64,000 nucleotides of DNA from Anthoceros angustus. Taxonomy: Eukaryota; Plantae; Anthocerotophyta. The notes beneath the pieces are model-generated. The model searched no databases, was not told where the DNA came from, and saw only the letters and a list, made by a program, of their open reading frames with translations. The stretch is from the NCBI GenBank assembly GCA_010909165.1, contig VJWM01000135.1, positions 372,001 through 436,000 of the forward strand, written 5' to 3'. Made by a program: the position numbers and the translations under genes. Below, in pieces: positions 18,401 through 39,787 of this stretch. Position 1 is the stretch's first letter. Every line of letters begins with the position of its first letter.

Positions 18401-19066
18401 ATGAAATTGCAATATGCGAGAAGAATGCAAAGTTACGAGGTAAAGATCCTTCAAGGAGCCTTGCGCCTTGCGAATGCTTGAGCCTGAGTGTTGGATGGCG
18501 TCACATCAGCGTGTGTCTCACCATCTTCGCAGGGCGTGAGCGTGGAGCATCGAAAGTAGAAATTACACAGTCTTCAAGCTCTTCACCTCACCATTCTCGG
18601 CGAAACAATTCCATTGGCAATGCGGGATGGACAAGCCTTCCATTGAACACATTGGTTCCACTGATCTCCCTACCGCGCCCCGCCAGCGAAAGTCCGATGC
18701 AATTCATGCTCACACCACGAAGAGATCGCGGCACGGTCGTGCGGCCAAGCCGTTGTGTCGGATACACGTTCCCAATGTTGGGAACACGTTTGATTTTGGA
18801 CAAACTGCGGATTGTGTCCGATTCGCGGCCGATTAGGGCACGTTCGCGCTTAAAATGAACCCCAACCGCCATTCCACAAACCGGAGCCATGAACGACGCA
18901 GCCGCCACGGGTTGCCGTGTATGGTATAGTATGCGCTCACGTATATTCACCTAGACAGGGTGCTATGGACATGGGATGGGTCATGGCGCGAGGCAAGGCT
19001 AGGCGATGGGGCCCACCACCTCGGGAGAAGAGCGCCATTACTTTGCAGGGAGAACTAGCCTCCGGC
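15416..19066 (-). mobile_element. Mutator-like DNA transposon (MULE) with degenerate transposase
   Basis: 9-bp TSD GTGGAGGGC (15407-15415 and 19067-19075). TIRs of about 260-290 bp begin GCCGGAGGCTAG (15416-15707 / 18807-19066). Internal minus-strand remnants: MDATFGTN (~17440), WKPNAFLVDDCQAEIN (~17260) and SWIM finger ACNCKQGLNGFVCKHQ (~16590). Confidence 0.93.
15706..15848. repeat. Tandem duplication, 2 x ~72 bp, just inside the left MULE TIR
   Basis: GCTTGGCAA(T/C)GCGACGGGGGCCTCCACCTCTTC...GGCAGACG occurs twice in succession. Confidence 0.9.
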
Positions 19067-19399
19067 GTGGAGGGCATACTTTCCTGGCTCAAGTGAACCC
19101 ATCTGCCACCGACAGTGTAAAACCCTGGAGGATGAACAGGCTAAACCCTCGACCCTGCATAAAACTGATGTTATGTGCTAAGTCTTAAAAAAGATACGCA
19201 AATGCTGTTGATGTGCTTATAACCCAGCTTCAATGCCCAAGTACCGGCTAATGTGGGCATAAGATTGCCGAATAACTTAGTTATTCGGCATATATGTGTG
19301 AATGTGATAAGTATGTCCTGATTGATAAACATTTTAAATGAGAGAAGAAGAGGGGCATATCACACATGCTACGAACTTCTACAAGTGGGGATTAATGCT

Positions 19400-21210
19400 C
19401 AGCTCACAAATAAGTATGACTCGGAGGATTCACACTCGTATATATGTGGTCAAGTTCTTTACTCACAAACACTTCATACGCACTTGCCCTCCAGGATTCA
19501 CATCTTGAGGGGAATGGAGCTTCATACAACAATATCATAGAATGGTAAAAAGCAGTCTTCCTGCTTTCACCGGGAGGAGTTGTAATAGCCTGGAAGCATA
19601 GCGTTCACACGGCATAGAACAAAAAAAGAAAAAAATCGTTAGCCATCATCCATCTGCCAATCATCAGACAAGGCATACTCAACAATGAAGCCAAGTAGGA
19701 CTGTAGTGCACGGTACTCATGGTAACTCAAAGGCGGCCAGGAGCAAGGCTCCGGTGTGTCTCCTCTATAAAATTCATTTCGAACCCCTTCTGACACTCAT
19801 AGAGGCACAAGGTTCGAGATACAGTTTTCAGTGTACCCACACTAAGGACCTTTCGTTTCTTATCGACTGCCCTACATCCTGGAATGCACGCTCTCCGATG
19901 CAGCCTAAGTGGTTGTGCAAAACACCCTCGCTTTGCCTAAACTCATGCCTTTCCTATTTCGGGCCTATTTGTTCCAACCCTGAGGCAGGCAGAAACTATT
20001 TGGATTACTGCAGCAAAAAAACAAAACACAAGACAGCTTGTGTGCTACTTGTATGCCAGTTGTGTGTCCATTGCCAATCCCTTGTTGCATGAGATTGTAG
20101 GTATACGTATGTGATCACCAAAAAGAGACTGTGACATGGGTTACCTGAGCGTTGTCAAATGAGGCCCTTGGTAAATCGAGAACCTGGTCTATTGTGCGGA
20201 GCGCCACAAGTTGTGCGAGCTGTGTGCTTGCACATAGGCGATGGCAATTGAGATATGAGATCTTAAGTTGCTGGTGAAAAAGTTTGACCCTTCGATCACA
20301 AACTTTCACCTATGGAACACACGCATAAGATTACTTGCTAGAAGACTTGTGTTCCATAAGATTACTCTTGGAAGAAAAGGAGGTGGGATATTCTAAACGA
20401 GGCAAGATCTAGAGCAAGACTTGCGGATAACTCTGCTCTTTGGACCTCAAACGGGCAGGATTAAGGAAAACCCGTCAGGCGTGGAATCCGATTTGCCTAC
20501 ATTTGAAGGATCCAGTGTTTGCCCAGATTAGCGCTACATTTGAAAGACAAGTGTTTGCCGAGTGTTTGAACATGTGACATATCTTTTTTTATAGTTCGCA
20601 ACAAAATGAAAAATAAGCTCGAGAAATTATGCGCGCGTGTCCCGACTGCCCAAGTGTCCCTAACGGCACGCCATAGCGCAGATGTTTCTAGAACCTTGTG
20701 GAGTCCAATGGTGTGAAGCATCAAAGTGCATGTGTGGTACAAATGTGTCACGGTTCCCGGTGTGGACCCTGCCTCAATGGGTTCTCACCGTGATGTCTCA
20801 CAGCAAATTCTGAAGCAATTTCACAGCAAGTTCATCAGGTGGGTTGGTGTGCTTCTTCACCTCGTCAGCCATTGGCCCAGCCAAAGAGGCCTCCGAAAGC
20901 CTGCAAAGACTTGACCCGGACAACAATACTTTGTGTTAGACGTCGCGCTGTCCTCCGTCTACTGGTTCAAAATGCATCGATGACACCTCCCGACCTCTTG
21001 ACCACCTTCACCGGCGTCGCCTCCGCAAACGTGACCTACCAGCTTTTGAATGGCTCCAGGGAACCTCCAATCCGGGTGCAGGCACGAGTTCAAGTACAAA
21101 AGCTCACCTCGACGAGATGTCTGTATGCTCACTTGAATCGCAGTTCACCAAGGTCGAGAATCGGAGACCTGTGCATCCAGAGCCTTGCCTGTGCAGAGTG
21201 GAATCCGCTC
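19400..21210 (-). other. Putative unidentified multi-exon gene or pseudogene
   Basis: Several AG...GT-bounded protein-like open segments (e.g. GDTPEPCSWPPLSYHEYRALQSYLASLL; AQLVALRTIDQVLDLPRASFDNAQ; VRDTWAVGTRAHNFSSLFFILLRTIKKD). At least one in-frame stop; family not recognised. Confidence 0.3.
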
Positions 21211-21342
21211 CAATCAGTTCAGGCTAGCTTCTGCACAGTTTAGCAATAGCCAGTAAGTGCATGCATGAAGCAGTTCTGCATTTGTGCAACTGGATTTCTA
21301 GAAGGCATACAGTCTTTCTCATGAAGCATTCCGGGATGTTGT

Positions 21343-22279
21343 ATGACAGTGGCCGAGACCTTCCCCGACAGCATCACCGCTCCTCCCGGCTTGTCCAAGA
21401 CTCTCCAGTTAGCAGGCCATGGTAAATTCTGCTGGAAAGCGGACCTTACCTGTTTGCAATTGACAAAGATTGCACAATGCAAGAAATAGCAATGCCACAG
21501 TGTGACAATTTCGCGCAGGCGAACAAGAAAGGGAGGTTCAGGGACGGCCTGTGAAAGTGTCCCGGATAGGAGCTTACTATGAGCCCGACGTGGTTTCACA
21601 CCTCCAGGCATGGAAGGGGAAATCCGCTGAAGAGCTCCGAACTGACGAGGCCTTCGTCGCGGCTCTCGCCAAAGGTATGTTGCCTGTCCCAATTGATGCC
21701 ACTGCCCATCATTCATGCCGTGAATTGTCCCACTGGAAGAAGCAAGTGCATCCAGATGCATGCATCTGACTGTCTGAACGCTTCCGCTCACAATTGACGC
21801 CATCTCGATCTGCAGCGCCTGTGGAGAAGTTCATTAGCGTCCGCTTTCTATTGGATCAAACCCGCGGGGTCAAGATTGCAGAGAAGGCGGAGCAGGTCAT
21901 CAGGGAGAAGCTCACCAAGGACAACACGCTTGGAGAGGCTGAGGAGAAGGAGCTTCAGGCGCTGATCGCTTTCTTCCAGGGCATCGAGAACGTAACCGCT
22001 GTTGTGTTCGCCTACCCTTCTCCCTCGGTTGTCAAGATCACGGTATGTCCTGGACCCCACAGCCTGCAGAGCAATCGTGTTATTGCGAGAACAATGTTTG
22101 CGAAAGTGTTGGAGACAAGCTGACCATGACGAGCTGGCCCCGTGCTGCAGGTGTCGGTGCCCGACGGATCGACTGTTCCACACGAGACCTCAAACGGGTT
22201 CATTGTGACCGCGCTCTTCGAATTTATTCTCCTCATCTCTGCGCCTGCCGTAGAGAACATCGCTGCCTGGCTCAAGTGA
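21343..22279 (+). CDS. Divergent chalcone-isomerase-fold protein (~196 aa, 4 exons, appears intact)
   Basis: Exons 21343-21421, 21519-21674, 21816-22042 and 22151-22279 splice in frame: TFPDSITAPPGLSKTLQLAGHG|EQEREVQGRPVKVSRIGAYYEP..WKGK..|APVEKF..|VSVPDG..AVENIAAWLK*. Same intron phases as CHIL. Confidence 0.8.
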
Positions 22280-24074
22280 GTCTGGCTAACGAAAGCCAGA
22301 GAGTCCGAGGCCTTGCTTACTCTGAGGCAGCTTTCACGTTTCCTCCCCTCACGACGATGTGTCTCAAGGCTTGGATATGGAAGATGTGCCCTGTATTGAA
22401 TAAGTAGAAATGGGTGAGCCTGTTAGAAATCTATAGGATTGGTGCAACACATCACATATTAGAGTTATGAGTATAAGTCCTAGAAGTATATAGGATTATC
22501 CCAGGAGCGAGATAGGGTTTCATACTATGGAGAGTATGACAAGGCCAAAGGCTATATATGTATGCATAGCACACCATTTCTAATGTACTGAACCTGGGAA
22601 TTACTGTTTTCTAACATGGTATCAGAGCATGGTTCAGGAGATGCGTAAAGTACTCTGCACCACCCTGTGTGGAACTCTTGCCACTTGTCTTCTATTGCAT
22701 TGTTTGTAGTTATGCAGACTAAGTGTTTGTGAAAGCTCGTTTGCAATTTCGTGAAGCTTGGTAGTAGTTTTGGTGCGAGGAACTTTTGTCTTGTCTTTGC
22801 ATAGCTTTCAAAGGTGTGCATATGGAGACTACGCGTCTAGTGGAGAAGTTTAATGGTAGGAACTTCACATTATGGAAGTTGAAGCTAAAATCTCTTCTCA
22901 TTGACAGAGGATTGTGGAAGTTTGTGGAAAATGGACTTCCAGATGGCGCTTCTGAACAGGACATAGACAAGGATGCGAAAGCCTTGGCTAATATTATCAC
23001 GAATGTGTCGGATGACATTCTCTCACAATTGAGCGAGTGTGTCTCTTGAGGATGCATGGAAAATTCTCTGCGTCGCAGAAGAAGAGCATTGTGAGCGAAA
23101 TCTTTGGAAAGTCAATTCTCCAACTTCAAGATGGTTGAGGCGACACTGTCAACAACATGTCAACAAGTTGAAAAGCTTGGTTGATCAAATGAGGGAGGCA
23201 GATCAAACCTTGAGGGTAAGGTGATCATCGCTGAGTAGTTTGTGTCGTAGAGGTGGCTTGAATTCGTATAAGCACTTCCTCGACCAACAACCAAGCAAAC
23301 AAATCTGTCACCGGTGTATAGGTGCAAACCAATAAACAACGAGGAGGAGTAGCTCGCCGTCGTGGCACAAAACACACTCTCCCACGAACAACACGCAATT
23401 CCTCACACATCGCTTCCTGAGTCATAGCTTTGGCCTCCTCACAACGCCTCAGAGATATCTAGAGGACAAGCTATGATCCGAGCTTGTCCTCAATGGAAGG
23501 GTCTATATATACTAGACCGGCATCGGCATATTCTAAGATATCCTATTGGCATCCGCATATGCCGAAATATCCTAAGAATACACTATAATATGCAAGGAAT
23601 ATGCCAAAGCATATTACTTGAGCTTATCCACTTAGCTATTGTATCCTAAGAATACACTATAATATGCAAGGAATATGCCAAAGCATATTACTTGAGCTTA
23701 TCCACTTAGCTATTGCTAACCATGTTTAATTAACACTAATCAATGCTTAATTAACATAAGCACATTAGATTAATTAACACTAATCAACGCTTAATTAACA
23801 TAAGCACTTTAGATTAATTAACACTAATTACTTACTTAAAGATAAGTAATTAGATTAATTAATGCTAATCAAACACTAAACCCAAGTGCGATTAGTATCA
23901 CACGGCATGGCAGCATGCGAGGTAAGCACTTGAATTCATATAAGCACTTCCTCGACCAACAACCAAGCAAACAAATCTAATACGCAGTATATAGGTGCAA
24001 ACCAATCCCCGATAATGTGAGACTCCAAGTCGAACATTATCATTAGTAGGACTACATACGACGCACCTCATGTA

Positions 24075-24210
24075 GTGCATTGTGCACAAAACCAATCTTC
24101 CTCGGAATGTCGTCAAGAGGTGGTTGAACACAAAACATGTGGTATCCCCTATTGCACCGATCACAAAGAAGCATTACATCATCATCATCGATCGTCCACA
24201 AACGACACTC
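24075..24210 (-). pseudogene. PHD finger (C4HC3) at the C-terminus of the gypsy integrase
   Basis: EC..(C)G..DDDDVMLLCDRCNRGYHMFCVQPPLDDIP(E)EDWFCAQC after correcting two 1-bp indels. Confidence 0.9.
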
Positions 24211-24369
24211 CAAGTCTTTGGGTGGACGCCACATTGTAGGCCGTAGTTGAGGGTCCAAATTGGGTAAGTGGCATGGTGCGCAGTTCTTGAGGTGATCCTT
24301 CCATCTTGACCATCGGATCCTTGAGCTCAAGCACTCCATCTTTGCCTACTACACGACCCGCAAGATGAC

Positions 24370-26585
24370 TCTGCTGGTGGATACCTCCAAGGTGTTGCCT
24401 GGCTTCCGATGCAGGTAGACATAATCTCCAACTTCGAACTTGCGCACCTTGGGTTTCCATGTCCCTCCTCGTGTGTAAGCATAGCGCAGTTGATCCCTGT
24501 GTTGCGCTATGGCAAGGTTCTCCATTGCCATGGGCATGATCCGTTTGAAAAGCTCTGCCCGCCTTTCCAGGTCTCGTAGGCAATCATCCGCATTGCGCCA
24601 ATCCACTGGTGCTTGTAGCCTTGCTTGCCTCACGTTTGGCAAAAATGGTTGTCGCCCATACAACAAGTAGTATGGTGAAAAATTGCTCAAGGTTGCTTGA
24701 TTGCTCACCCTGTACCCTAGCACTAGGTATGGCATCCCTTCATCCCATGTCTTGGTCATTTGTGAGACAATATTTGCGCAAGGCCGCTTGAAGGTCCGCA
24801 CCAAGCGTTCAGAAGTCCATCGGCTTGAGGATGATCTCTCGACGTCGATGATCAATCAAGCTCTGTCAAGCAAGTCTTGAAATTCCCCACGAATTCTTTG
24901 CCACAGTCGGTGAGAACCTGCACATGCTCCATATCGACTAAGAACGGAAGCCAAGAACGCCTTACTGGTAAGCCGAGAGTCACGCTTGGGTAAGATGGCA
25001 ACCTCGCACCACTTGCTGAAATGCTCCACCATTAGCATGACATGCTTGTTTCCAGTACGCGTCTCTGGCATGTATGGCATGAGATCCACACTCCACCTGT
25101 AGAAGAGTCCTCGGATCGGCAGAGAGTGAAGCACAACATCATTGGCTGTGAACCTTGCCTTCACTCGATCGCACACTCGACATTCTGCGACCAGCTTTTC
25201 CACATCTCCATACATCCTTGCCCAAAAGTGTGTGGGCCTGAGCATGCTGTAGGTGCGCTTAGCACCAAAATGCCCTAAGCCTTCATGCACCTGGGTGATG
25301 AGTCTCACCCGGTCCTCCGGCTTGGGTACAATTCTATCTCCATGAGAATCACGGACATACATTATGTCCTCCTTCCAATAGTACCGAGCCACCTTCTCGT
25401 AGCTTGGCCGCTCGAGATGAAAGCCCTTGTGGCAATTCCCGACCTTAGGAAGGTCACCGCTATTGCATCCGCCCGGATGTCCCACGGACTCTGCTGGTGG
25501 ATACCTCCAAGGTGTTGCACGGCTTCCGGCGTGTAGACATAATCTCCAACTTGAACTTGCGCACCTTGGGTTTCCATGTCCTCCTCGTGTGTAAGCATAG
25601 CGCATTGATCCACTGTTGCGCTATGGCAAGGTTCTCCATTGCCATGGGCATGATCCGTTTGAAAAGCTCGCCCGCCTTTCCGGTCTCGTAGGCAATCATC
25701 CGCATTGCGCCAATCCACCGGTGCTTGTAGCCTTGCTTGCCTCACGTTTGGCAAAATGGTTGTCGCCCATACAACAAGTAGTATGGTGAAAAATTGCTCA
25801 AGGTCGCTTGATTGCTCACCACATGCCCTAGCACTAGGTATGGCATCCCTTCATCCCATGTCTTGGTCATTTGTGAGACAATATTTGCGCAAGGCCGCTT
25901 GAAGGTGCACCAAGCGTTCGGCAAGTCCATCGGCTTGAGGATGATCTCTCGACGTCGATGATCAATCAAGCTCTGTCAAGTCTTGAAATTCCCCACGAAT
26001 TCTTTGCCACAGTCGGTGAGAACCTCGCACATGCTCCATATCGACTAAGAACGGAAGCCAAGAACGCCTTCTTGGTAAGCCGAGAGTCACGCTTGGGTAA
26101 GATGGCAACCTCGCACCACTTGCTGAAATGCTCCACCATTAGCATGACATGCTTGTTTCCGATCTGGCGTCTGCATGTATCGGCATGAGATCCACACTCC
26201 ACTGTAGAAGAGTCCTCGGATCGGCAGAGTGAAGCACAACATCATTGGTGAACCTTGCCTTCACTCGATCGCACACTCGACATTCTGCGACCGCCTTTCC
26301 ACATCTCCATACATCCTTGCCCAAAAGTGTGTGGGCTGAGCATCTTGTAGGTGCGCTTAGCACCAAAATGCCCTAAGCCTTCATGCACAGGTGATGAGTC
26401 TCACCCGGTCCTCCGGCTTGGGTACAATTCTATCTCCATGAGAATCACGGACATACATTATGTCCTCCTTCCAATAATCGAGCCACCTTCTCGTAGCTTG
26501 GCCGCTCGAGATGAAAGCCCTTGTGGCAATTCCCGACCTTAGGAAGGTCACCGCTGTGCATCCGCCCGGATGTCCCACGGACTCG
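24370..26585. repeat. Tandem duplication (~1.1 kb x 2) of the integrase region
   Basis: Integrase HHCC/core/GPY segments occur twice; junction GGACTC|TGCTGGTGGATACC at ~25490. Confidence 0.9.
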
Positions 26586-28229
26586 CATACAAAGCGATGA
26601 GTGGAGGGTCTTGACATCCTCATGCGGCATGGCCAACATGGTATCTGGACTACTCTCCCCGGTTGCTCGTCATCCGAATCTTGCACGGCCCCTGTAGTGT
26701 CTTCGTTAGGTAGAGGATTCCTTGACAACCCATCGGCATTAGAGTGAACTCTACGCTCGGTGTTCGATGACAAAGTCATACTCCGGAGAATGAGAGCCCA
26801 CCTCGCCGCCTTTCCGTAAGCTTGGCGTTCGTCATCAACCAATGCAAGGGTTGATGGTGGTGATCGAAATTGATGTCCAAACAATGCAGACGAAAGTGTC
26901 CGATTGCCCACACCGCAAGACATTCTCCTTCATAGGCGAGTAGTTGGACTCACTTTGGTTGTTGCTCCGTGGCATAGGCAATGACATGTTCCTCTTCCTT
27001 GTCATTGATCTGCGCCAAGACTGCCCCTATGCCGTACTTGCTCCAATCAGTGTAAAGTACGAACGGCTTATTGAAGTTTGGATGACCAAGAATTGGCGAG
27101 CTCATGAGTCTACCCTTCAACTCCATGAAATGTGACTCCTCCTCTTGAGTCCAACGCCAAGTCACCAACTTCTTCAACAAGTCATTCAATGGCGCAATCC
27201 TGCTCATCCGTGGAATGAACTTCTAGTAACACCAAACCCAAGAATGCCCTCAACTTCGAGATGTCGTTTGGCACAGGAATGCGCGATTGCCTCCACCTTG
27301 GTGGCATGCGGCGAGATCCGTCGGGCGTGATCCAATGACCCAAGTACAACACCTTATCCTCTCCAAATCGACACTTCCTGGATGGGCCTTCAACCCTGGC
27401 AGCGTCTAGCAAAGGCGCTCGAAGATGTTGTAGATGCTCCTCAAAGGTATTCTGAAGATGATGACGTCATCAATGTAGCACTTGGCGAAATGCAAGTCCT
27501 TGAGCTCATTGTCCATGTACCTTTGGAGCTGCGTTGGCGATGTCTTCAACCCAAATGGCATGTAATTCCACTCGTACAAGCAATCTACGCCCGAGCGCGT
27601 TTTCTTCTTGTCTTCTTGATCTCTACTTGGTGAAACCCTAGCCTCAAGTCCAATGTTGAGAAGAACTTGGCGAGACCCAATGGTGTCGAAGATCTCTTCA
27701 CCGTCGGCATGGGATAGTGGTCATGTGGGATTCGCTCGTTCAACGGCCGATAGTCACCACACATTCTCCTCTCGTCCACAATCCATTCTCATCCTTCTTT
27801 TGGAAGCACGCCGCTCTGCGAGTTAGATCGTCGAATCAGCCCTAGCTTGAGAAGCTCTTGGCATCGATTCTCAACCAAATCCCACTCGGCCTTGCGCCTC
27901 TGCGGAACCTTTGGTTCATCCGTGGTCGTTCTATGTGGAACTTCCCTTTGGTGTACTTCCCCATCTCCATAGCGTGAAAGCAAACACATGTCGCGATGCC
28001 TCCAACAACTCCTTTAGGCGCGTTGATTGCTCTTCAACTCGGCCTGTTAACCACTCATGTGGTGGCTCGGATGGCTTGCACGCTTCCTCTACGTGCTCGC
28101 TCTCCTTGCCTCCAAACTCGCCTTCTCCTGTTGAGATGCGAGTCTTGGAATTCACCCACCGAACCCGCCGCTTCAACCCCGCCTTCTTGGTTTGAAGTTG
28201 GTAAGCGACTCCGGCTAAACAACCAGTCA

Positions 28230-30957
28230 TCATGTTCACGTCAAATGCTTGCCCAAGCAATCGACACCGTTCCTTCTCGGTCACTCCGGTGTCTTCGTGG
28301 CTCGATCAAATCCCATGGCCAACTCCTCTCTGTGGTGTTGGCTCTCCCAAGGCCTCGCCATGTCATCCCACCACAACGCCGGGCCATGGTTCCCGGCGTA
28401 AGACTTGGACTTAGACACAAAGGTTGGCCAAGCCGCCATGGGGTGTCCAGCGTGTTCACAGGAAGTGCGGCGGCTTGTCGGTCTTGATGACTTGTTGGGC
28501 ATGCCTTCCGATGCTAGCACATCCTTGACAACATGATTAGGTCGCTTGGTGAGCGACCTCGCACACTTCAAATGTTCCAAGGGAGCAAGGTTAGTCCACA
28601 TGGACCTCAACCTATGAGCCCTCGAACCAAATTGAGTGCATCCAATAGAAGCTCGACCCAACACTCCTCGGATCGTGGCAAAGTCCTCCTGAACTTGCTT
28701 CTTCACGCTCATGCATCTTGGCACATTCTCCAACATGTATCCACAAGGCCTTTCTTGCCCTTTACGGATCAAGCGCAAGATCCTCATCGTCATAGAACAA
28801 TCTTTGTTCGTGGATCCTTGAGACCTTGACCCTTACTGCAGAGGATAGTCCTTGACACTCCCAACTGCGATGACAAGGTCCACGGTTGCCCAAGACAACT
28901 CAAATGGGACAACCCTATCATGCGAACATCCATCGGTATACGGTAACCCTTCACGACTCCACGTCGGAGGTTAGGTACTCCCCATCAAGTCTCTTACGCG
29001 CACGGACACAATCCTTGCTTTTGGATCCGGGTCACAATGCATGTATCTTCGCACTTTGATGCCAACACGATAATATTTGAAGCGGCTGAATATACGAAGC
29101 CGCTTTGAAACTCGGACCAATTTGAGTTCGCATACAGTCCCAAAACCCATGATTCTTAATGTTCTCGGTTTACGCATTTGGGTCTTGTTACTGCCCGTCG
29201 CGGTTTGGTCCGTTTGGACAAAATTTTGCCTCCAGGTATGGTGCACGGCGCATGTGTGTGGGTGCCGGCATGCCGGCGCCCTAAAAGAAACTCAACTTAA
29301 CTAATATAAAAACTACAATTGGATCTCGAACTCGCGATCTATGATTCTTAGCCGAGTTTTTTACCACTTTACCAACTTTAGGAGACAACAAAACTTTATG
29401 ATATGCAAATAACATATACTAATGAAGGTGCCAATATGCTAGCACCCTATGCTCTTATGCTCCTCCATAGGGCGCCGGCATGCCGGCGTCCTTAAATACG
29501 TTTTCTATGAGCGCCGGTGTGCCTGCGTCCGCATTAACACTAGGGCTTACAACCACTTGTCGTGCACCCATGCACATTATGACTTACATATATTAGGCCA
29601 CGCATCGCTTGCTTGCGCAAGAGAATGAGAGAAAACTTACCACCTTTCACACTTCTGATCACGACGCAGCCTTGGTCGCTCACAAAGATGGTGTCCAACA
29701 TACAAAAAACGTATTCAATTGCTATGACCTCAGAGAAAGATAGTCGCGGCCTACAGACTCGAGAATAGGGAAGAAACTTGGCGTGTCATGTCTCTCTTCT
29801 CCATTCCGATTCAAGTGAAATTTGAGATCATGAATATTAGGGCATGGGTAATTTCAAGCAGCTTAGAAAACCTTTGAAATTTAAAATAATTTCCATGATT
29901 TTGAGTTCAAGTATACAAATTATTAGAATAAGGAATTTAAACCAAACCAATCACTTTTACAACACATACTATGCTCTCATTTTCTCATTTCGATACATAT
30001 ATTACCTATTCCTACACAACATGAAAAGTTCACCTTCAAAGGCGCCGGCATGCGCCCTAGAAGACTTGAACTCAAGACCTCTTATTTCCAACTTTTAAGG
30101 CTTACCACTCCATTAACTTTCCCATGTACAAATAATTGAGGGACAAAGTATATGTTGAATGAGGGCCGCATGCCGGCGCCCTCATGCCCTCATTTTCTTC
30201 TTCTTCTTCATCATGCCCTTATGCTCCCCATGCTCCTTGTTTTGATAGCCATCCGAGAAGCCATCACGGTTCGTGGTTTCTTAGCCACTAGCCTAGGGTG
30301 TCTAACCGATGTTGAGCATCCGAGAAGCCATTACGGTTCGTAGTTTCTCGGCGAAGGAAAGTGTTTGTTGGACGTCCAAAAGACTCATTGCCAAAGGCCA
30401 TGAATCTTGGCGCCGATGCCGCCCAATGCACGTAGCCTTTGAGCATGACTTGGGCGCCGGCATGCCGGCGCCTAGGTGTGTCACTTACGGCGTGTTTAGG
30501 GTCATTCTACCATAATACACATGACATCGACCGTGTCCGGATTGGATGTATAGCACGATATAGAAATAGCCGATGCATTCCCTTCGATGTCACGCAGATG
30601 GTCGCCATGTTCATTTCATCGTTGTTTAACGAATGGCATGCACTAACGACATGGGCATCATTTCCATTGAAAACAATGGTCACTGTAGGTCAAATCCTTC
30701 GCCTACCATTGTAAGCCGCTAAAATATATAAAATTCTCTCGACACCCTAATTGTGTGCCTTCCCAGGGTATGCTCAAATACACATTTCAATGCCCATCGA
30801 AAACCCCTGCTCGTGAGATATTCACGCCAAAAGCCGCTTGATGTATATTCACGTCAAAAGCAGCTTGATGTATATTGACCGCTTCAAATATTATCTTGTG
30901 GCACACTTTATGCCTCCGGCAATCGATGCCTCCAAAGAGTTCCACGAGCACTATGCC
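28230..30957 (-). pseudogene. C5-cytosine DNA methyltransferase domain within gypsy pol, split by a TIR element
   Basis: Motif I GIVLVELFGGI (30957-30925); GIKVRRYMHCDPDPKAR; motif IV VDLVIA(G)WECQGLSSA(G) (Cys 28857-28855); motif VI YMLENVP (28730-28722); motif VIII FGSRAHRLR; motifs IX/X ELAMGF..GVTEKERCRLLGQAFDVN. All collinear. Confidence 0.9.
29061..30902. mobile_element. Non-autonomous TIR element (MULE-like)
   Basis: Imperfect ~35-bp TIRs (GCCA..GATAATATTTGAAGCGG..AATATAC and its reverse complement); near-9-bp TSD CACTTTGAT / CACTTT-AT; AT-rich non-coding interior. Confidence 0.8.
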
Positions 30958-32239
30958 GCCTTCCCGAGGTCGCCATGTGATGACACGGGTGTTTAGGTCA
31001 CAAACAGCTCAACCCTAGGCAAGAACTTACAGTTCTCGGCTCATAGGGCACCGGGTCCTCTTGCACCATCCTCCATGCCTTTTGCACGGCTCATTGCTGC
31101 AGCCACCAGTCCGAGTGACTTGAAGAACCTCCTCCGAGGGTGGTTGCAACCCTAGCTTGTTTTCCTCCTCCTCGTCGAAATCCTCCATCGTCGGGCCTGC
31201 TGTTGTTAGACACACGCCAAGAGGTTCAAGCACGATGGCGGTCCTTCACTACGGCGCCAAACACCGGGTAGACGCTGGCAATGAGGTTCTCATGATCCTT
31301 GCCATGTACCGCAGAGGGATGCGGGCAATCCGTTCATCGGTTTTGCTCCAGCTTCTCCGGCTGGTCGATAGTAGACTGCCTCCGCCCACAAATCCACCAT
31401 GACCTGTGTTTGTACAAAGCGTCCGCCTCCAAAAGAAGACATCAAAAGTGTCGCATCGGTGACCAAGCGGTGTACCTCGACAAAGGTGAAGTCTGCTGTT
31501 CTTGGTTTGAATGAAACCTTCAGCTTGTACCTTGTCACCCCAACACATGCTCCGTGGTCCCACGCCCGGATCTTCCACTTGGTTTCCTTCAACCTTTCTT
31601 GGTGGAGACCCAACGCTTCCTTCACTCTTCTTCCAACGATCACCGTGCTCCTGTCAATCAACACCTCCTTGGTGCGAATCCATTGATTTCAATGTGCCTC
31701 TCCCGATTGTTGACCAAAGCCACTCCCACTGCAAAGATTCCGCTTCTCCACGAGATGCTTGGCCCGAGGTCAAGAATGACATCATTGCCACCAGTGGCAC
31801 ATTGTCGACACTTGCTTCGCCTTCAAGGGTTGTCAACATCCGCCGAGTCAAACCCCGACTTCCTTCACGCCAACCCCATGTCTTGTAGGTCAAACATGGC
31901 ATCTCCGAAGCTTTTGTGCCATCGCTCCGAACTGCATGGGTTTCTCCACATCGCCCACTGACTTTGATGTTGCTCCAGCTGTTCTGCTGGCAATGGCTCA
32001 AACGACTTTGGCATCTTGGCATAGGTTCGGAAGAGGATCCCAAGCTTCCTTCCGTGTCTTCCGTGACCGCGTGTCAAGACATCCTCTTCTTCCTCGAGCT
32101 ATCTTCTCTCGTAGTCAGAGGTTTCTTCCCTTGCCCTTGATCCGGGTCACCGCCATGTATCCAAGCTTGTGCTCATCTTCTTCGCCCTCGATGATGAACC
32201 GCCTCCTTGATCTTCGCCTTCCGCACCAACTTCTCCAGC

Positions 32240-34350
32240 TTTGCAAGGCGTGCCACGTAGCTGTCCATCGCCTTCTTTGATGCTTCCCGCTTTTGTCCAC
32301 GGGACTTGGTGCCTCCTCCACGCGCCTTTGCTCTTCGCCGATTTTGTGGATGAGGTTGACGCAGATGCATTGGCCGGGTTGTTGCTCGATAACCCGTAGG
32401 CCGCAATTCCGGATGCTTCTCCCAACATGCCGCTTCATTGTGCCTGCATTCTCCCACACCTAGGGCATGGCTCCTCACCCTTGACTCCTCCGAATGCATG
32501 CTCGCACTCATGAGGGGAATGGTCCGCCCCTCGGCACCTCACGCAGGGCTCGCCACTTGGCCGTGGGCTTGGGCTTGTCTCGCCGAGCTCCTCCACTGAC
32601 CTCCGCGTCGGTCATGTCGTCCACCACTCCTACTTGTGCCGGAGTAATCACTTGCAACAAAGACGAGAGAAAGTGTCGGCCCTATCTTGTCACCATCTCG
32701 TACACTTCCTTGAGGGTGTAGTGTTGCCCCTTCGTCTTTGTGCACCGCTTGTTGCACCTTCATGCGCATATGGCAATGCCTGTCTGTACCCGCCGGTCAC
32801 TCATGATCTTGGTGTCACGTACAACCGGTCGATTCTTCGATAAGCCATCTTCAGCCTCGCCGACTTCATCTTGAAGTGTGTCACCGGAGATCTTCTCATC
32901 CGTGCTTGCGAAACTCCACGGATTAATTGAAGAGTTTGTCATCACCGGATCGATGACATACCCATGTCTATCCGCCCCCTTATCCCTTGAATCCGGGCCC
33001 AAGAGTAAAATACTCTTGTTTCTCCTTGGTTGGTTGGCCTTAAAGGCCAGCCCCCTGTGGAGGCCTCATTCCTCCTTGGTAGGGGCTTATCCCTTGAATC
33101 CGCCTCTCTCCTTGGCCTTGGGCTTGGGCTTTTGCCTCCTCTCCTTGGCCTTGGGCTTCTTCTCCTTCTCTCCTTGGCCTTGGACTTGGGCTTGCCTCTT
33201 CTCCTTGGCCTTGGACTTGGGCTTCTTGCCTCCTCTCCTGGCCTTGGGCTTGGGCTTCTTCTCTCCTTGGCCTTGGACTTGGGCTTCTCCGGCTTTTGCA
33301 AGGCGTGCCACGTAGCATCCATCGTCTTCTTTGATGCTTCCGTTTCTTTTGTCCACGGGACTTGGTGCCTCCTCCACGCGCCTTTGCTCTTGATTTTGTG
33401 GATGAGGTTGACGCAGATGCATTGGCGGGGTTGCTGCTTTCGATAACCCGTAGGCCGCAATTCGGATGCTTCTCCCAACATGCCGCTTCATTGTGCCGTA
33501 CCTCCACACCTAGGGCATGGCTCCTCACCCTTGACTCCTCCGAATGCATGCTCGCACTCATGAGGGGAATGGTCCGTCCTCGGCACCTCACGCAGGGCTC
33601 GTCACTTGGGTGTGGGTGGCTTGTCTCGAGCTCCTCCACTCGACCTCCGCGTCGGTCATGTCGTCCACCACTCCTACTTGTCTTTGGAGTAATCACTTGC
33701 AACAAAGACGAGAGAAAGTGTCGTGGGCCCTATCTTGTCGACCATCTCGTACACTTCCTTGAGGGTGTAGTGTTGCCCCTTGTGCACGCTTGTTGCACCT
33801 TCATGCATATGCATATGGCAATGCTGCAAGTACTTCTCTGACGATCGGTCACTCATGATCTTGGTGTCACGTACCAGCTGTCGATTCTTGATAAGCCATC
33901 TTCGCGGTCTCGCTGACTTCATCTTGAAGTGTGTCACCGGAGATCTTCTCATCCGTGCTTGCGAAACTCCGGCGGATTAATTGAAGAGTTTGTCATCGGG
34001 ATCGATGACATACCCATGTCTATCCGCCCCCTTATCCTTGAATCCGGGCCCAAGAGTAAAATACTCTTGTTTCTCCTTGGTTGGTTGGCCTTAAAGGCCA
34101 TTATGGAGGCCTCATTCCTCTCTTGGTAGGGGCTTATCCCTTGAATCCGCCTCCTCTCCTTGGCCTTGGGCTTGGGCTTCTTTGCCTCCTCTCCTTGGCC
34201 TTGGGCTTGGGCTTCTTCTCCTTCTCTCCTTGGCCTTGGACTTGGGCTTCTTCGCCTCTTCTCCTTGGCCTTGGACTTGGGCTTCTTTGCCTCCTCCCCT
34301 TGGCCTTGGGCTTGAGCTTCTTTGCCTCCTCTCCTTAGCCTTGGGCTTGG
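32240..34350. repeat. Tandem duplication (~1.05 kb x 2) of the gypsy gag region, including Lys-rich low-complexity tracts
   Basis: GCAAGGCGTGCCACGTAGC at ~32243 and ~33298; GATGACATACCCATGTCTATCCGCCCC at ~32951 and ~34004; (CTTGGCCTTGGG)-type microrepeats. Confidence 0.88.
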
Positions 34351-34440
34351 TCCCCTCTCTAGGCCTCAAGCCTTGGGCACACTTCAGAGAGTCCCTTACC
34401 TACTTGCTTAAAGAGCGAGCGTCGCCTCGCGTAGCCTCGC

Positions 34441-34560
34441 CTAGCACGGCCTAGCATCGCCTAGCATCGCCTAGCATCGCCTAGCATCGCCTAGCATCGC
34501 CTAGCATCGCCTAGCATCGCCTAGCATCGCCTAGCATCGCCTAGCATCGCCTAGCATCAC
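34441..34560. repeat. Minisatellite (CTAGCATCGC) x 12 in the gypsy 5' leader
   Basis: 10 perfect units (34451-34550) plus 2 variant flanking units. Confidence 0.97.
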
Positions 34561-34790
34561 ACTAAGCCTAGCACGGCCTATCTAGCGTACGCACACGAGA
34601 TCATAGCTTGTAACAACAGGAGGGAGTAGCTCGCGCATCGTGGCACAAACACACTCTCCCCACGAGAACAACACGCAAATTCCTCACACATCGCTCTCGG
34701 AGTCATAGCTTTGGCCTCCTCACAACGGTCTTTGCATTGCATATCTAGAGGACAAGCTATGATCCGAGCTTGTCCTCAATGGAAGGGTCA

Positions 34791-34796
34791 TATATA
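34791..34796 (-). promoter_or_regulatory. Putative TATA box of the gypsy LTR promoter
   Basis: TATATA present in both repeat copies (also ~23505), about 30 nt upstream of the 13-mer complementary to the primer site. Confidence 0.5.
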
Positions 34797-37700
34797 CTAG
34801 ACTCGGCATCGACATTCCTAAGATATCCTATCGCATCAAGATATGCCGTAAATATTCTAAGAATACACTATAATATGCAAGGAATATGCCAAAGCATATT
34901 ACTTGAGCTTATCCACTTAGCTATTGCTAACCATGTTTAATTAACACTAATCAATGCTTAATTAACATAAGCACATTAGATTAATTAACACTAATCAACG
35001 CTTAATTAACATAAGCACTTTAGATTAATTAACACTAATTACTTACTTAAAGATAAGTAATTAGATTAATTAATGCTAATCAAACACTAAACCCAAGTGC
35101 AGAGATTAGTATCACACGGCATGACATTTGCCACCATCATGTAGGCAATTTTTATTGTCTTATAGGGCATCCGTAGCGATGCGTCCACGTGACAATCAAC
35201 CAACCTTCGATGAGGTGGTTAGATTACTCCTACAAGAGGAGCTTGATGGTTCTTTCCAGACACAAGGCAACGAAGGCTTGGCACTCTTCTCGAAGAAGGG
35301 CACATCACGGTGGAAGACGTCGCAAGCCAAGTCTCTAGAAGGGACAAAGGATACGGATGCAAAGAGAAAGGTGAAAGGCTTTTGTTATTATTGCGGGAAG
35401 CCCAATCACCACGCAAAGGATCAAAATAAGATTGGCGGACTTGAAGAAGGGAAATCATCCCAAGCTAATCAAGTCAGAAGGACCAAGAACACATCTTCGC
35501 TTTCACCGAAAGAGATCAAGCGACTTCATCAAAGAAGGATGAGAGTTTGTACCTTGACTGTGCATCCCAAGATTTCGCTTATAACCTTCCTTGGTTCTCA
35601 AGCTACGAGGTATTGCCGGAGGGGCATACGGTGGCGCTTGGTGACAATAGGTCACATGACATCAAGGAAGAGGAGTGTTACGAGTCCATCTTCCGGAGGA
35701 CCTGTGTATTAAGGACGTGCATCATGTGCCTCATCTTGCGAGGAATCTTCTTTCGCAAAAATTGCCGATGCAGGTCATGAGGTTGTGTTCAATTCCAAAA
35801 GGATTTCGGATCCAATCCGAGCACCGAGTTATCGAATGCTAAAGTGATTGCTAGGCGTCCGAGTAGGAAATTTGTACAAGTTGTGTGCTTCGTGGAAGGC
35901 AAGCTTGCACCTTTATGGACGATTCGCAAAATAGCATTGGATCTATTGATTTATGGCATCAACGTCTAGGGCACATTGGTGTGGACAATATCAGTTGATG
36001 AAGAACCAACATATGGTTCTGAGCTTGGATTTGAAAGAAGTGGGTGAGCAAATTATGCCAAGGGTGCATAATGGAAAGCTACACCGAACTAAGTTCCCAA
36101 GATTGCAGCTGACGAGCAAAGATGGCGCTAGAGTTGGTACACACGGATGTGTGTGGTCCAATGAAAATCCACTCATGGCGGAGCCCGCTACATTCGGTGT
36201 TTGTGGATGATTTCACTAGGAAGACTGGACATATCTTATGAAGGAGAAATCCTGTATTTACACTCTTCAAGGAATGGAAAGCCATGGTGGAGAACGCAAG
36301 TGGACAACGTCAAGACTTTGCGTAGTGACAACGGAGGTGAATACATCTCCACGACTTCCAACGCTTTTGCAAGGAGCATGGAATTGGAAGGCAACTAACC
36401 ATCCCTCACACACGGAGCAAAATGGAGTGGCGGAGCAAACTTAGGAGTCCGTGGAGGCTAAATGCATGTTACATCATAGTGGCTTGGAAGTACGTTTTTG
36501 GGGTGAGGCTGTTGTTACAGCAACCTATGTTTTGAATCGAGTTCCAACCAAAGCTATTGTTGGAATGACCCCGGAGGAAGCGTGGTCTGGCGTCAAGCCC
36601 GACATAAGCCATTTGAGGATCTTTGGTTCAGTGGTTTATGCTCACGTTCCGAAGCAAACCCGAACAAAATGGGATCCAAAAGGCGTGAAGTGCCTTATGC
36701 TTGGATACTCTACTGAGATTAAGGGCTACCGGTTGTATGATCTTTCAAGGAAGAAGATCATTTTTAGCAGGGACGTTGTATTTAATGAGGTTGTGGAACC
36801 CATCAAAGGAGTGGGAGCTCCAACCCCAGCGGTTATCATGAAGGATCCGACGGCGTATGTTGACGACCCTGATGAGGATTCTGACTATGATGACACTCTT
36901 GAGCAACCTGCTCCTGAGCCCAACGAACCTTCTCAACAATGCGACATAGAGGGGGGAGAAAGGGAAATTCCTGATGTCGCGATTGGAGAAGTAGATGAAG
37001 ATCAAAGCATTGTCGAATTGTGAAGAAGAGGAAGCTCAAGTATTCGAGAGAGACAACCAATCTTGAGAAGATCAAGAGACAATGGAAACCTTCAGAAGAT
37101 CTTGGAATCCATGAATGCATGTGTGTATGAGGAGGCATGGTTGGCGATGCGGAACCACAAAGCCTAAGGGAAGCATTGGAAGGACCAAAGGCAAAGGAGT
37201 GGAAAGAAGCGTGATGAGTATAACTCTTCTCAAGAACAAAACTTGGGCAATCACTCCTCTACCTCACGGAAGGAAGAGCATAGGATCAAAGTGGACATTC
37301 AAGATTAAGCGCAAGGTGATGGAAGCATAGAGCGCTACAAGGCAAGGTGGGGAAAGGATATACACAAGTCCTGTGTGGATTATCGATACCTTCTCCCCGC
37401 CGCTAAGATAGCATCTATCCGAGCTCTCCTAGCTATCGCAGCCGCCGACATGGAGATACATCATATGGATGTTCGACCGTTCTGAATGGAGATCCGGATG
37501 AAGAGATCTACATGGACCAGCCGAGGGATACGAAATACCGTGACGCGAGGGAGAGGTATGTAGGCTGCTAAAGGCTCAGATGGTCTTAAGCAATCGCCTT
37601 GCTTGGTATCGTAAGGTTGATGTGTTTTTCCCCTAGAGGTTTCAAGAAAACCAATGATTGGAATATCTATGTGAAGAGAGTGGGAGAATCCATAATTATC

Positions 37701-39787
37701 ATTGCTGTTTATGTGGACGATTTGATTATTGCTAGCAATGACATGGAACTCTTAGACTCGAAAGCAAAGCCTTAATGCAAGCTTTGACATGAGAGATTTG
37801 GGTGAGCTCCACTATTCCCTAGGAATAAAGGTGGAAAGGAATAGGGCTAACAAAATGATCTCTTGAGCCAACAAACATATGTGGAGACCATATTGAGCGT
37901 TTGCATGCAAGATTGCAAACCCATGAAGACGCCAATGATCTTCAATGAGAAGCTATCGCAGGAGATGAGCCCTACAACGAAAAGGAGAAAGAGAAGATAG
38001 ATAAGACTCTCTATCAACGTGCGTTGGCTGTCTTACATATTTGGCAACAGGACAAGGCCCGACATTGCAGAGGCGTGGGAGTTGTGAGTCGATTCTTGGC
38101 CAACCTCGACAACAACATTATCAAGCGATCAAGAGGATATTCGATACTTGCGGCACAAAACATTGGAAGTTGAAATACCAAAAGGATCGACATGAAGGCG
38201 CCTGTGGTTGGATTTTGTGATTCGATTAATGGAGATGTCGATGGCGCAAGTCTACCAGGATATGTGTTATGCTATTTGGGGAGCCATTTCATGGAGTAGT
38301 AGGCCACCATCGTGGCTTTGTCCTCTGAGCGGAGTACATGGCAATATCTCACGCAACAATGGAAGCAATATGGCTACGACGATTGCTCAAGAAATGGGAT
38401 TTAAGGTAAGGGTGCAACAACCATCTTCAACGACAATCAAGGTTGCATTTACTTAGCAAAGAATGCTACTTTTCACGCGAGGACGAAACACATTGAAGTA
38501 AAGCATCACTTCATCAGGGAGAAAGTTCAATCCAAGGCGATAGAGCTAGCGTATTGTCCCACTGTGGACATGCCTGCAGATGTTTTGACGAAAGGGTTGA
38601 CTTTAGAGAAGCACGTTAAATTTAGCAAGATGTTAGGCTTAAAAGAGTAGCACTGATGTGTTGAGTGGGAGTGTTAGAAATCTATAGGATTAGTGCAACA
38701 CATCACATATTAGAGTTATGAGTATAAGTCCTAGAAGTATATAGGATTATCCCAGGAGCGAGATAGGGTTTCATACTATCGAGAGTATGACAAGGCCAAA
38801 GGCTATATATGTATGCATAGCACACCATTTCTAATGTAATCAACTGAATTATCTTTTAACAGAGCCCATCTACCGGGCTTTTACTGTGAGATTGTGGGTA
38901 TTGAAATTAATGGCGACTACATGTTCCCGGCCACTTCTTCTAGTACTTGCGACTGATTCCTCCATCGGACTTGGCAAGTTTCTTCTCTCTTTGAGCAAAT
39001 CGGATTACTGCTTGAGTTCGGATCGCCCTCAATCGTTCAGGCGTCCTGCCTTCGTTGTCGACACCAAGATGAATGTGTTGATCCAAGTGGAGGTCATAAG
39101 AACTACGACAGTCTCACTGCTCCATCGCAATATGAAACAAAAAGAAAATGAACAATAAATAATAAAAATGAATAATTGTAACCTATGAAGTAAGATAGGC
39201 CAGCCTCCGTTTTACATCCCACTGTGTGTGACCGTCTGTGACGTATGTATGAGCGATTGTTTTTGTTTTCCACGTCTTTCCGAAGTACTATTTTGACTTC
39301 TTGCTAGCTGTGGCTGGCAGGTGGCAAACCACATAAGAAATTGTGCGGATGAGCCTTCGGTGGACTGGCTACGGATACTGGGAGCGCCTTTGTGAGGGAG
39401 ACTCACAGTAACCAGGCTTAATAGGAATAATTGATTCTCTAGTAGCTATCTGGTTATATCAAAACATGGTCCAGTCCTGAATCGCCCCATGTTTTGGGCA
39501 CATCTGTGACATTTGGACATTTGGACATTTGGACATTTGGATGATTTTCTGTTGTATGTAAGAGTAATGAAAGAGCTGAATTGATCAATTTTGTACAGCA
39601 CCTTTCTCGAGGCCATACTCTTTTCGTGCTAGAATGAATCCAACTGGATTCCTAGCTCCAATGCTGACTGCACGCCAGATACAAGAATGGAAAAAAAGAT
39701 GGACAGGCCCGACATTATCAAGCACATTATCCACAATCCAGTTGACCAGCGCTGCTGATGCTGTGTACATTTTGCTTCTGCCATTTG

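Follow-up and report, generated by a model that had tools for sequence, protein, structure and literature searches.

The window, by which we mean the whole stretch of 64,000 nucleotides analysed, contains a copia element whose gag is broken by the insertion of a second retrotransposon on the opposite strand (Table 1). The original prediction had described the latter as a Ty3/gypsy element encoding its own C5 DNA methyltransferase (DNMT), and its exact ends, the TTTG target site duplication located in the copia gag and the domain order bear this out. In particular, Pfam, family HMM and frameshift-aware profile searches gave the order protease-DNMT-RT-RNase H-integrase-PHD, preceded by a putative Gag assigned by its position. 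As expected of a Ty3/gypsy LTR retrotransposon, the protease, reverse transcriptase (RT), RNase H and integrase follow one another in this order, the integrase is of the DDE type, the ends are TG...CA and the target duplication falls in the 4- to 6-bp range, whereas two identical full LTRs are absent from both the window and its relatives, which present A-internal-B-A-B ends instead. Of 9 sites across the family, 6 have perfectly matching 4-bp duplications and 2 more have one mismatch. The original prediction had noticed neither the split terminal repeats nor the signal for self-priming, nor had it noticed the PHD finger.

Table 1. Features of the gypsy insertion and its copia host (window positions)
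Feature	Position	Strand	Remarks
Host copia element	22411..38844	+	LTRs 22411-22593 / 38662-38844; gag broken by gypsy insertion
Whole Ty3/gypsy DNMT3 element	23243..35126	-	Ends TGTC (35126)...GACA (23243)
Target site duplication, element's 5' side	35127..35130	.	TTTG, 4 bp
Repeat A1, 5' terminal repeat	34612..35126	-	Contains promoter and predicted RNA start
TATA-like box	34791..34796	-	
Predicted RNA 5' end and self-primer	34752..34764	-	13/13 complementary to PBS position
Primer-binding position (PBS)	34599..34611	-	Immediately after A1; no TGG tRNA-type PBS
10-bp tandem array, 5' leader	34419..34568	.	
Gag region	32150..34350	-	Apparent ~1.05-kb tandem duplication (32230-33282 / 33284-34350); putative, by position
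Aspartic protease	31305..31753	-	Family PR HMM 31670-31362
DNMT N-terminal piece, motif I	30904..30975	-	ELFGG, 30951-30915; alone 34.5 bits vs null 14-23
Non-coding TIR DNA-transposon insert splitting DNMT	29060..30903	.	Inverted ends of 49 bp with 84% identity; duplication of ~8 bp; GC palindromes that recur
DNMT3-type catalytic domain	28216..29059	-	Motifs IV (Cys codon 28857-28855), VI (ENV), VIII (AHRLR), IX, X
Reverse transcriptase	27335..27887	-	YIDD; Pfam RVT_1 E 1e-7 and profiles
RNase H	26770..27153	-	Pfam RT_RNaseH_2 E 3e-21
Integrase region, second copy	25487..26584	-	Richer in indels; 7 substitutions, 38 gaps vs 24367-25491
Integrase	24367..25491	-	HHCC zinc domain and DDE core; Pfam Integrase_H2C2 E 1e-15, rve E 1e-4
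PHD finger	24097..24192	-	Pfam PHD E 1.7e-8
Short G-rich tract adjoining B1	24007..24014	-	PPT position; 4 G here vs 6-8 in relatives
Repeat B1	23913..24006	-	91% to B2 over 78 nt
Repeat A2	23335..23912	-	
Repeat B2	23243..23333	-	Terminal CGACA
Target site duplication, element's 3' side	23239..23242	.	TTTG, 4 bp

Outside the DNMT, the protease was matched by tblastn in a relative (L016; E 1.7e-6) and in Closterium (P0053; E 5.5e-5), and the gag region, for which the Pfam search of the window gave no gag match, shows a weak zinc-knuckle-like similarity near 32454-32371. No chromodomain match was obtained in the window pieces or in the relatives, where the PHD finger is found instead. The second copy of the integrase region is either a tandem duplication or a misassembly. 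The frameshift-aware profile reading met 17, 8, 6 and 7 frame breaks in the DNMT, RT, RNase H and integrase, respectively, against 0 stops; since the breaks are so many and occur without stops, most frameshifts in the element are likely to be assembly errors. Contigs of run X1 differ from the window by 0 to 1 substitutions and 4 to 11 gaps per 200 to 320 nt.

The collinear C5-methyltransferase motifs that had been predicted between protease and RT were recovered by the frameshift-aware profile, which, with X at every break, scored 300 bits; the reverse strand reached 18.6, and 20 shuffles gave 14 to 23. In this reading, motifs I, IV, VI, VIII, IX and X are collinear and unpermuted, and the catalytic C, E, N and both R residues are kept, with Glu replacing Pro before the Cys. 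Of the motif IV originally proposed, the WEC core stands, whereas the full string GWECQGLSSAG does not, as it spans frame breaks (the literal frame reads SWECQGLSSAV). The C5-methyltransferase profile search suggested at the time had a divided outcome: the lone stop-free DNMT piece (28284-28832) gave no Pfam match at E<=1, whereas the family HMM run against the window scored 29069-28275 at iE 6e-41. The same piece gave no meaningful PDB sequence match, and a word-seeded homologue search of 153 candidates came up empty; these blanks are explained by the shortness of the fragment and by the frameshifts. Among 1.84 billion proteins, the piece has 226 relatives at E<=1e-3. The segment first proposed for excision (29061-30902) is indeed an insert, with limits corrected to 29060-30903. 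This 1.84-kb DNA transposon may be hAT-like, judging from the length of its duplication; in run X1, it is skipped by a contig with a depth of 116, and depth over the insert is <20 in runs X7 and X18. Because the insert interrupts the domain, the enzyme of this particular copy is probably dead.

Judged by profile and predicted fold, both of which were taken from stop-free relatives (alignment A2, L003) and not from the window copy, the domain is a DNMT3-type C5 methyltransferase. In fact, the best PDB matches of the family profile were DNMT3A (E 7e-25), then 3B/3C, DRM (6e-14) and M.HhaI (5e-8), and the predicted fold of L003 (pLDDT 91) compares to DNMT3A/B with a TM of ~0.7 (E 1e-18). Of the 190 full domains examined, 189 have a residue at the motif IV Cys column, which is Cys in 188. 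Furthermore, WEC is the commonest form of motif IV in the family (45 of the motif matches in 154 proteins, versus 37 for WPC) and not a mark of decay. The SAM-binding motif I, the Cys, ENV and RxR are kept across green algae and land plants; motif VIII is conserved in the loci by construction, having served as the search pattern. As far as purifying selection on the DNMT is concerned, the catalytic columns are conserved among the domains examined, and most differences within the L003 family are transitions acquired after insertion, along with 1 to 6 stops.

The original prediction had allowed that, if other family members lacked the domain, it would be a one-off captured fragment; depth and domain order indicate instead that the DNMT is family-wide. 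Contig depths along the DNMT add up to 5,665 in run X7 and 105,554 in run X18, next to 8,334 and 124,203 over the integrase and similar values over the RT, although contig depth in these runs of related organisms does not equal copy number. The DNMT precedes the RT in 49 of 58 non-redundant clusters (81 fetched loci), and both Closterium and land-plant metagenome contigs show the same domain order; viral contigs yielded one weak locus. Contigs of run X2, which we guess to be RNA, are few and of low depth on the DNMT and uninformative on expression. The trees comprised hand-picked subsets (40 to 52 rows of 235 proteins and loci, with no REXdb references). The one from RT and RNase H sets the elements with the order protease-DNMT-RT apart from an RT-RH-DNMT-INT type (86 versus 99), and places the window beside Closterium and P0041; once the integrase is added, the L003 family becomes the sister group of the window (0.945), and in the DNMT tree the window's position has a support of 0.5 only.

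The termini are as distinctive as the coding content. Repeats A1 and A2 align with 491 matches, 7 substitutions and 25 gaps, and the A..B-A-B arrangement recurs in L003, L016, L026, L029, L039/40, L046 and L048; in runs X1 and X18, other family copies terminate with B plus TGCGACA. At the B1/A2 junction, all 10 tabulated relatives have a 2-nt spacer (6 with an exact CA-NN-TG, 4 with one transition), and the CA-NN pattern is absent from the window's own junction. At the A2/B2 junction, the PBS end abuts the PPT end, exactly in 7 of 10 cases and a few nucleotides off or with a short duplication in the other 3, a heterogeneity which includes one retained PPT G. None of the 16 distinct sites whose flanks were long enough showed the form A-B-A-internal-B. 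For the shorter A..B forms, devoid of a second A and B (L014, L022, L033, L044), we considered an origin from 1-LTR circles, but a loss that followed insertion, or a collapse in the assembly, is the simpler source, since L014 and L016 occupy one insertion site and differ in terminal form. Split ends of this kind would presumably be missed or mis-trimmed by standard LTR finders.

The best site for pairing with the PBS is found 28 to 30 nt past a TATA-like box in 14 of 17 A1 repeats, and is lost in 2. The complementarity amounts to 13/13 in the window, 15/15 in the L003 family and 16/17 in L047, with three unrelated sequences, and the MFE fold of the window pairs the self-primer with the PBS (z -4.2). 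The duplex energies of the AU-rich L003-family primers are not above controls. No tRNA gene occurs in the window. The TATA-linked complementarity suggests that the element likely primes reverse transcription with the 5' end of its own RNA, at the predicted start.

The best explanation of the locus, which we consider fairly probable, is a member of a Ty3/gypsy family of streptophyte plants that carries a DNMT3-type methyltransferase between protease and reverse transcriptase, has split-repeat ends, and is likely self-primed and likely cDNA-methylating. The observations behind it are the domain order, the catalytic residues, the family-wide presence, the termini, the 4-bp duplication and the TATA-linked PBS complementarity.

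How such ends arise can be addressed more tentatively. Transcription would start ~30 nt downstream of the A1 TATA box, and the first 13 nt of the RNA would pair with the PBS and act as primer, as in Tf1; with the PPT just upstream of B1, the resulting cDNA would be B-A-internal-B-A. Joining of its ends would create the A2/B2 junction in a 2-LTR circle, and cutting of CA-NN-TG between B and A by the integrase would give the integrated form. Inside the particle, the DNMT, set free by the protease, would carry out de novo methylation of the cDNA, and insertion would be directed to repeat chromatin by the PHD finger. The family could be an ancient, integrase-encoding streptophyte lineage, still present in high copy number and with a distribution that runs from charophyte algae up to mosses and hornworts. 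It would dispense with tRNA, its integrase would open a 2-LTR circle for integration by cutting an internal CA-NN-TG att junction, and its own DNMT3 would methylate the cDNA beforehand; methylation at the CpG of the conserved CGACA end could then choose the junction to be cut. We regard this proposal as possible but doubtful. 2-LTR circles are usually regarded as dead ends; the termini described here provide a concrete model of them as integration substrate. If circles were cut at either of the two junctions, the form A-B-A-internal-B would be expected as well, and its absence counts against the model, as does the window's own B1/A2 junction without the CA-NN pattern. A linear route, with no closed 2-LTR circle in an element otherwise as described, would account for A..B-A-B alone being seen, and strikes us as unlikely. 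The integrase could cut the B/A junction of the left repeat and keep the freed B piece until this is joined to the other end of the element, on the right; alternatively, B2 could be restored by a template switch of the DIRS/Ngaro kind; the available text of PMC5890265 does compare the repeat layout of a related element to DIRS. However, a purely DIRS-like route would make the conserved PBS-like site and the PPT needless, and the heterogeneity of the A2/B2 junction, with its retained G, resembles end joining.

As regards the methyltransferase, it would likely methylate the new cDNA. The function put forward in the original prediction, methylation of the element's cDNA or of its insertion site, finds no support in base composition: the CpG observed/expected ratio is 0.70 to 0.79 in the element, 0.74 in the copia element and 0.50 to 0.55 in host genes, so that no footprint of self-methylation is visible. 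This lack of depletion, together with the change of PC to EC in most members and the failure of the Klebsormidium enzyme to methylate in yeast, a result that its authors deem inconclusive in the text available (PMC5890265), would fit a domain kept for DNA, RNA or chromatin binding, or acting on RNA:DNA intermediates or host loci, with no cDNA methylation. We find such a role improbable, as motif I, Cys, ENV and RxR have all been retained from green algae to land plants and, according to the same text, the related SymbioDIRS-Dnmt3 enzymes do methylate CG in yeast.

The host MMT shares 52 to 53% identity with mosses and 48% with a lycophyte, moss and lycophyte themselves sharing 50 to 54%, in a tree with no algal, liverwort or hornwort reference; no algal name appears among the named ones of 120 MMT matches. 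CHIL-like genes are also present in the window, and the consulted part of PMC9670752 counts CHIL among the genes that all land plants share. Both genes agree with the embryophyte host first proposed from them, and we infer a non-moss, non-vascular plant, likely a hornwort. That the host is instead a streptophyte alga, leaving the window with no land-plant extension to offer, is very improbable: the MMT tree lacks an algal outgroup and RT and RNase H alone place the window with Closterium and P0041, but the MMT is as near to mosses and lycophyte as these are to each other, CHIL-like genes are present, and a land-plant relative exists regardless, since the L003 element is adjoined by a PPR-DYW gene, which identifies it as land-plant DNA. 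The suggestion that retrotransposon DNMTs may reach land plants is therefore upheld by L003 and by the embryophyte-like host genes; we found no published case of a land-plant gypsy with a DNMT3. DNMT3-carrying gypsies are in this way extended from an alga to land plants whose de novo methylation is unlike that of angiosperms: in the portion of PMC10952607 consulted, that of a moss depends on DNMT3 and one hornwort is nearly devoid of CHH methylation. With a family abundant and young-looking in several related species, the question of what use retrotransposons make of a DNMT, posed in 2018, becomes testable.

An element of this type has already been described from Klebsormidium; what is new here is a presumed land-plant member and a testable integration model. 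KnitGypsy-Dnmt3 of Klebsormidium nitens, as described in the accessible sections and legends of PMC5890265, shares a Dnmt3-related domain in the Gypsy Pol, conserved catalytic residues and DIRS-like repeats (A-coding-B-A-B), the likeness being one of description and not of sequence or domain order, as none of the 20 family proteins looked up bears the name Klebsormidium; its host is an alga, unlike the presumed land plant of the window, and those sections are silent on self-priming, a 4-bp duplication, a CA-NN-TG junction and a PHD finger. Tf1/Tf2, Tj1, Tf1-Sushi and the plant Tcn1 clade, compared through descriptions in parts of PMC4600332 and PMC6317226 and not through a tree, share the complementarity between PBS and RNA 5' end and a Ty3/gypsy pol, but are described as chromoviruses with ordinary LTRs, different from the split repeats, DNMT and PHD finger of the window, in which no chromodomain was found. 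DIRS, Ngaro and PAT elements (tyrosine recombinase, no integrase, no target duplication) are excluded by the DDE integrase and the 4-bp duplication, and Troyka (CG...CG ends, 3-bp duplication, animal hosts) is not matched by the ends or duplication of our element; split LTRs in Troyka are not borne out by the portion of PMC12440569 available. SymbioDIRS-Dnmt3 and SymbioLINE-Dnmt share a retrotransposon-borne cytosine methyltransferase on a different, DIRS or LINE, backbone (PMC5890265, same sections). The methyltransferase of EpiLTRs is a DNMT4 sister with DAM and a chromodomain, and the preprint that describes them, as far as its accessible text goes, treats the streptophyte Gypsy-DNMT3 as a distinct acquisition (bioRxiv 10.64898/2026.05.21.726589). 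A PHD finger is shared by the green-algal gypsies Gypsy-7a_cRei (PMC9940879, in part) and presumably REM1, and by the RT-RH-DNMT-INT-PHD type (Scenedesmus P0017; P0002, P0006). The latter has a homologous DNMT with GWECQ/GWPCQ, but places it between RNase H and integrase and forms a separate RT and RNase H clade; the A-type loci that were checked, possibly truncated ones, showed no terminal repeats. Finally, C5-methylase clusters came up in the Atlas at 0.89 to 0.90 only, and are a lead.

The DNMT-carrying Ty3/gypsy element lies in the gag of a copia element (22411-38844), and the 96-98% identity of the copia LTRs (22411-22593 and 38662-38844) indicates that this nesting is recent. Among the 23 window pieces scanned, Pfam matched RT, RNase H, integrase and a PHD finger, and gave no match for the one stop-free DNMT piece. 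In a search of 1.84 billion representative proteins, this piece hit 226 at E<=1e-3, the best 150 of which were retrieved, and the DNMT family HMM matches window 29069-28275 at 6e-41. The domain order and coordinates of the original prediction are borne out. Read with the insert removed and an X at every frame break, the DNMT domain scores 300 bits against the family profile, versus 14-23 for 20 shuffles, and spans 301 of 326 profile columns, with the C5-methyltransferase motifs I, IV, VI, VIII, IX and X in pol collinear, as had been claimed.

Features of the DNMT element, in window coordinates
Feature	Position	Strand	Remarks
Ty3/gypsy DNMT3 element	35126 to 23243	(-)	starts TGTC, finishes GACA, TTTG on either side
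A1	35126-34612	(-)	5' repeat, internal region next
Protease	about 31750-31300	(-)	family profile and translated search
DNA-transposon insert in DNMT	29060-30903		1.84 kb; inverted ends 49 bp, duplication 8 bp
B1	24006-23913	(-)	repeat after internal region
A2	23912-23335	(-)	repeat after B1
B2	23333-23243	(-)	final repeat

As for the type of the predicted enzyme, a profile of 16 relatives compared with solved structures placed DNMT3A at the top (7e-25), followed by DNMT3B/C, DRM (6e-14) and M.HhaI (5e-8). The AlphaFold model (pLDDT 91) of the domain of L003, a relative on a metagenome contig, matches DNMT3A/B with a TM of about 0.7. A set of 190 full domains, not purged of redundant loci, contains 189 with a residue at the motif IV Cys position, and in 188 of these it is Cys; the residue before it is Glu in 123 and Pro in 55. 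The consulted sections of PMC5890265 report the Klebsormidium enzyme as negative in yeast and the Symbiodinium DIRS enzymes as positive. By composition, the element presents no CpG depletion beyond the level of the adjoining copia.

This copy contains 17 frame breaks in DNMT, 8 in RT, 6 in RNase H and 7 in integrase, with no in-frame stops; decayed relatives with the same domain order contain as many as 9 stops in DNMT. Contigs of run X1, from the same organism and possibly the source sample, hence not independent of the window, differ from its RT and integrase by 0-1 substitutions and 4-11 gaps per 200-320 nt, and the copia pol also shows gaps against them. In our reading, the frame breaks are mostly long-read errors and the family is young. 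The insert is skipped by one X1 contig and barely covered in X7 and X18, runs from related organisms, and is therefore restricted to this or very few copies. A 29-nt segment at 54477-54505, matching its inverted end at 90%, is perhaps another copy of the same DNA transposon. Two apparent tandem duplications of ~1.1 kb each are located in gag and in integrase.

Contig depth, when summed for DNMT in X7 and X18, is within a factor of ~2 of the values for RT and integrase; such depth, not to be equated with copy number, excludes a one-off capture.

The protein relatives (host names were considered for 20 proteins, 3 of them host MMT) show two orders, namely, RT-RNase H-DNMT-integrase-PHD, as in P0017 of Scenedesmus, and protease-DNMT-RT, in Closterium and protein P0041, with protease-DNMT in Mesostigma. 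In the metagenome scan, the best 80 of 219 relatives plus one viral-contig locus formed 58 clusters, with DNMT before RT in 49 and before integrase in 6. The RT+RNase H tree parts the two orders (support 86 and 99), and in it a Tetraselmis element without DNMT adjoins the streptophyte clade. When integrase is added, the L003 family is the sister of the window element (0.945); L003 is land-plant DNA, since a PPR-DYW gene adjoins it. Deep branches are not separated in the DNMT tree, and the two positions may reflect either one capture with relocation or two captures.

Green-algal-type gypsies with DNMT between RNase H and integrase (P0002, P0006, P0017, L015, L054, L056 and L074) include several with long stop-free ORFs, and P0002 and P0006 have one more C-terminal domain beyond PHD. 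Since PMC5890265, in the sections consulted, gives Gypsy-DNMT3 for Klebsormidium alone, the occurrence in chlorophytes such as Scenedesmus may not have been described before. Loci L047, L012, L019, L057 and L060 and the L003 family represent two subfamilies (WPC and WEC motif IV), both present in the same metagenome contig set, with unrelated repeats and a common TGTCATG start and CA-NN-TG junction.

The repeat layout A-internal-B-A-B is that of KnitGypsy-Dnmt3 of Klebsormidium (PMC5890265, in part) and occurs also in L003, L016, L026, L029, L039/40, L046 and L048, where the elements likewise start with TGTCATG, finish in a CGACA-like sequence and are flanked by target duplications of 4 bp (perfect at 6 of 9 sites, one mismatch at 2, failed at 1); further copies in X1 and X18 finish in B. 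No tRNA-type PBS follows A1 in the window element. The 13 nt directly after A1 are complementary to 34764-34752, which begins 32 nt beyond the TATA box start, and the two sites are paired in the predicted RNA fold (z -4.2). This arrangement of PBS and predicted RNA 5' end shows the self-priming pattern of Tf1, as described in the consulted parts of PMC4600332 and PMC6317226. Complementarity is found also in the L003 family (15 nt) and in L047 (16/17), with sequences different from the window's, and this covariation across three sequences is new. In 14 of 17 A1 repeats, a distance of 28-30 nt separates the best pairing site from a TATA-like box; in AU-rich cases, duplex energies are not above controls. 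A G tract stands directly 5' of B1 in all 17 tabulated relatives.

It is possible to hypothesize that priming at the PBS and PPT would yield a linear B-A-internal-B-A cDNA, and that the integrated form would correspond to this molecule circularly permuted once its ends have been joined. The A2/B2 joint, exact in 7 of 10 relatives and slightly ragged in 3, would represent the PBS-side end meeting the PPT-side end. The B1/A2 joint is CA-NN-TG in 10 of 10, with a spacer always of 2 nt and one transition in 4, a geometry that would be needed for a staggered integrase cut. Two observations count against a circle cut: the mirror product A-B-A-internal-B occurs at 0 of 16 distinct sites in our own tally, which would require cutting on one side only, and the window's own B1/A2 joint is degenerate. 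The predicted cDNA ends (window 34611-34615 and 24002-24006; A and B ends of L003) resemble half-lost att sites and are perhaps relics of an ordinary LTR: the A end of the L003 family reads CA-AT, and B in the window starts with AT-TG.

The element type is already published for Klebsormidium (PMC5890265), cited as a streptophyte Gypsy-DNMT3 in a 2026 preprint (bioRxiv 10.64898/2026.05.21.726589). The literature covered, which leaves outside subscription journals and Repbase Reports, described neither an example from land plants nor a circle model in its consulted parts, among them PMC10952607, PMC11982613, PMC8075897, PMC9940879, PMC6673714, PMC6317226 and PMC12440569. New are a likely hornwort lineage whose DNMT3 gypsy family is abundant and apparently young, the counts of junction types and the occurrence of DNMT at two positions in pol.

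With regard to the host, the MMT exon shows 52-53% identity with its counterparts in three mosses; the value for Diphasiastrum is 48%, that for Selaginella 43%, and seed plants range over 41-45%. In a tree of 14 rows without algal, liverwort or hornwort references, MMT belongs neither to the moss clade (98) nor to that of vascular plants (89). A tandem cluster at 13612-22255 comprises at least three CHI-fold (CHIL-like) genes, partly 78-79% alike; a 3.6-kb element whose inverted ends measure ~240 bp (15415-15656/18831-19067) splits or flanks one of them. According to the consulted part of PMC9670752, all land plants have CHIL. Together with a GC content of 49% and the compactness of the genes, this makes the host very probably a land plant and probably a hornwort. 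Methionine S-methyltransferase and aminopeptidase P are encoded at 44186-52000, and MVD, DUF561, Bap31 and a kinase piece elsewhere. A second gypsy-like element with many indels occupies 59300-64000 (-), with a weak integrase match (60138-59845, iE 0.007) and no DNMT match. Finally, a repeat region at 55150-55900 (74% GC) features recurring CCCTAGGG palindromes.
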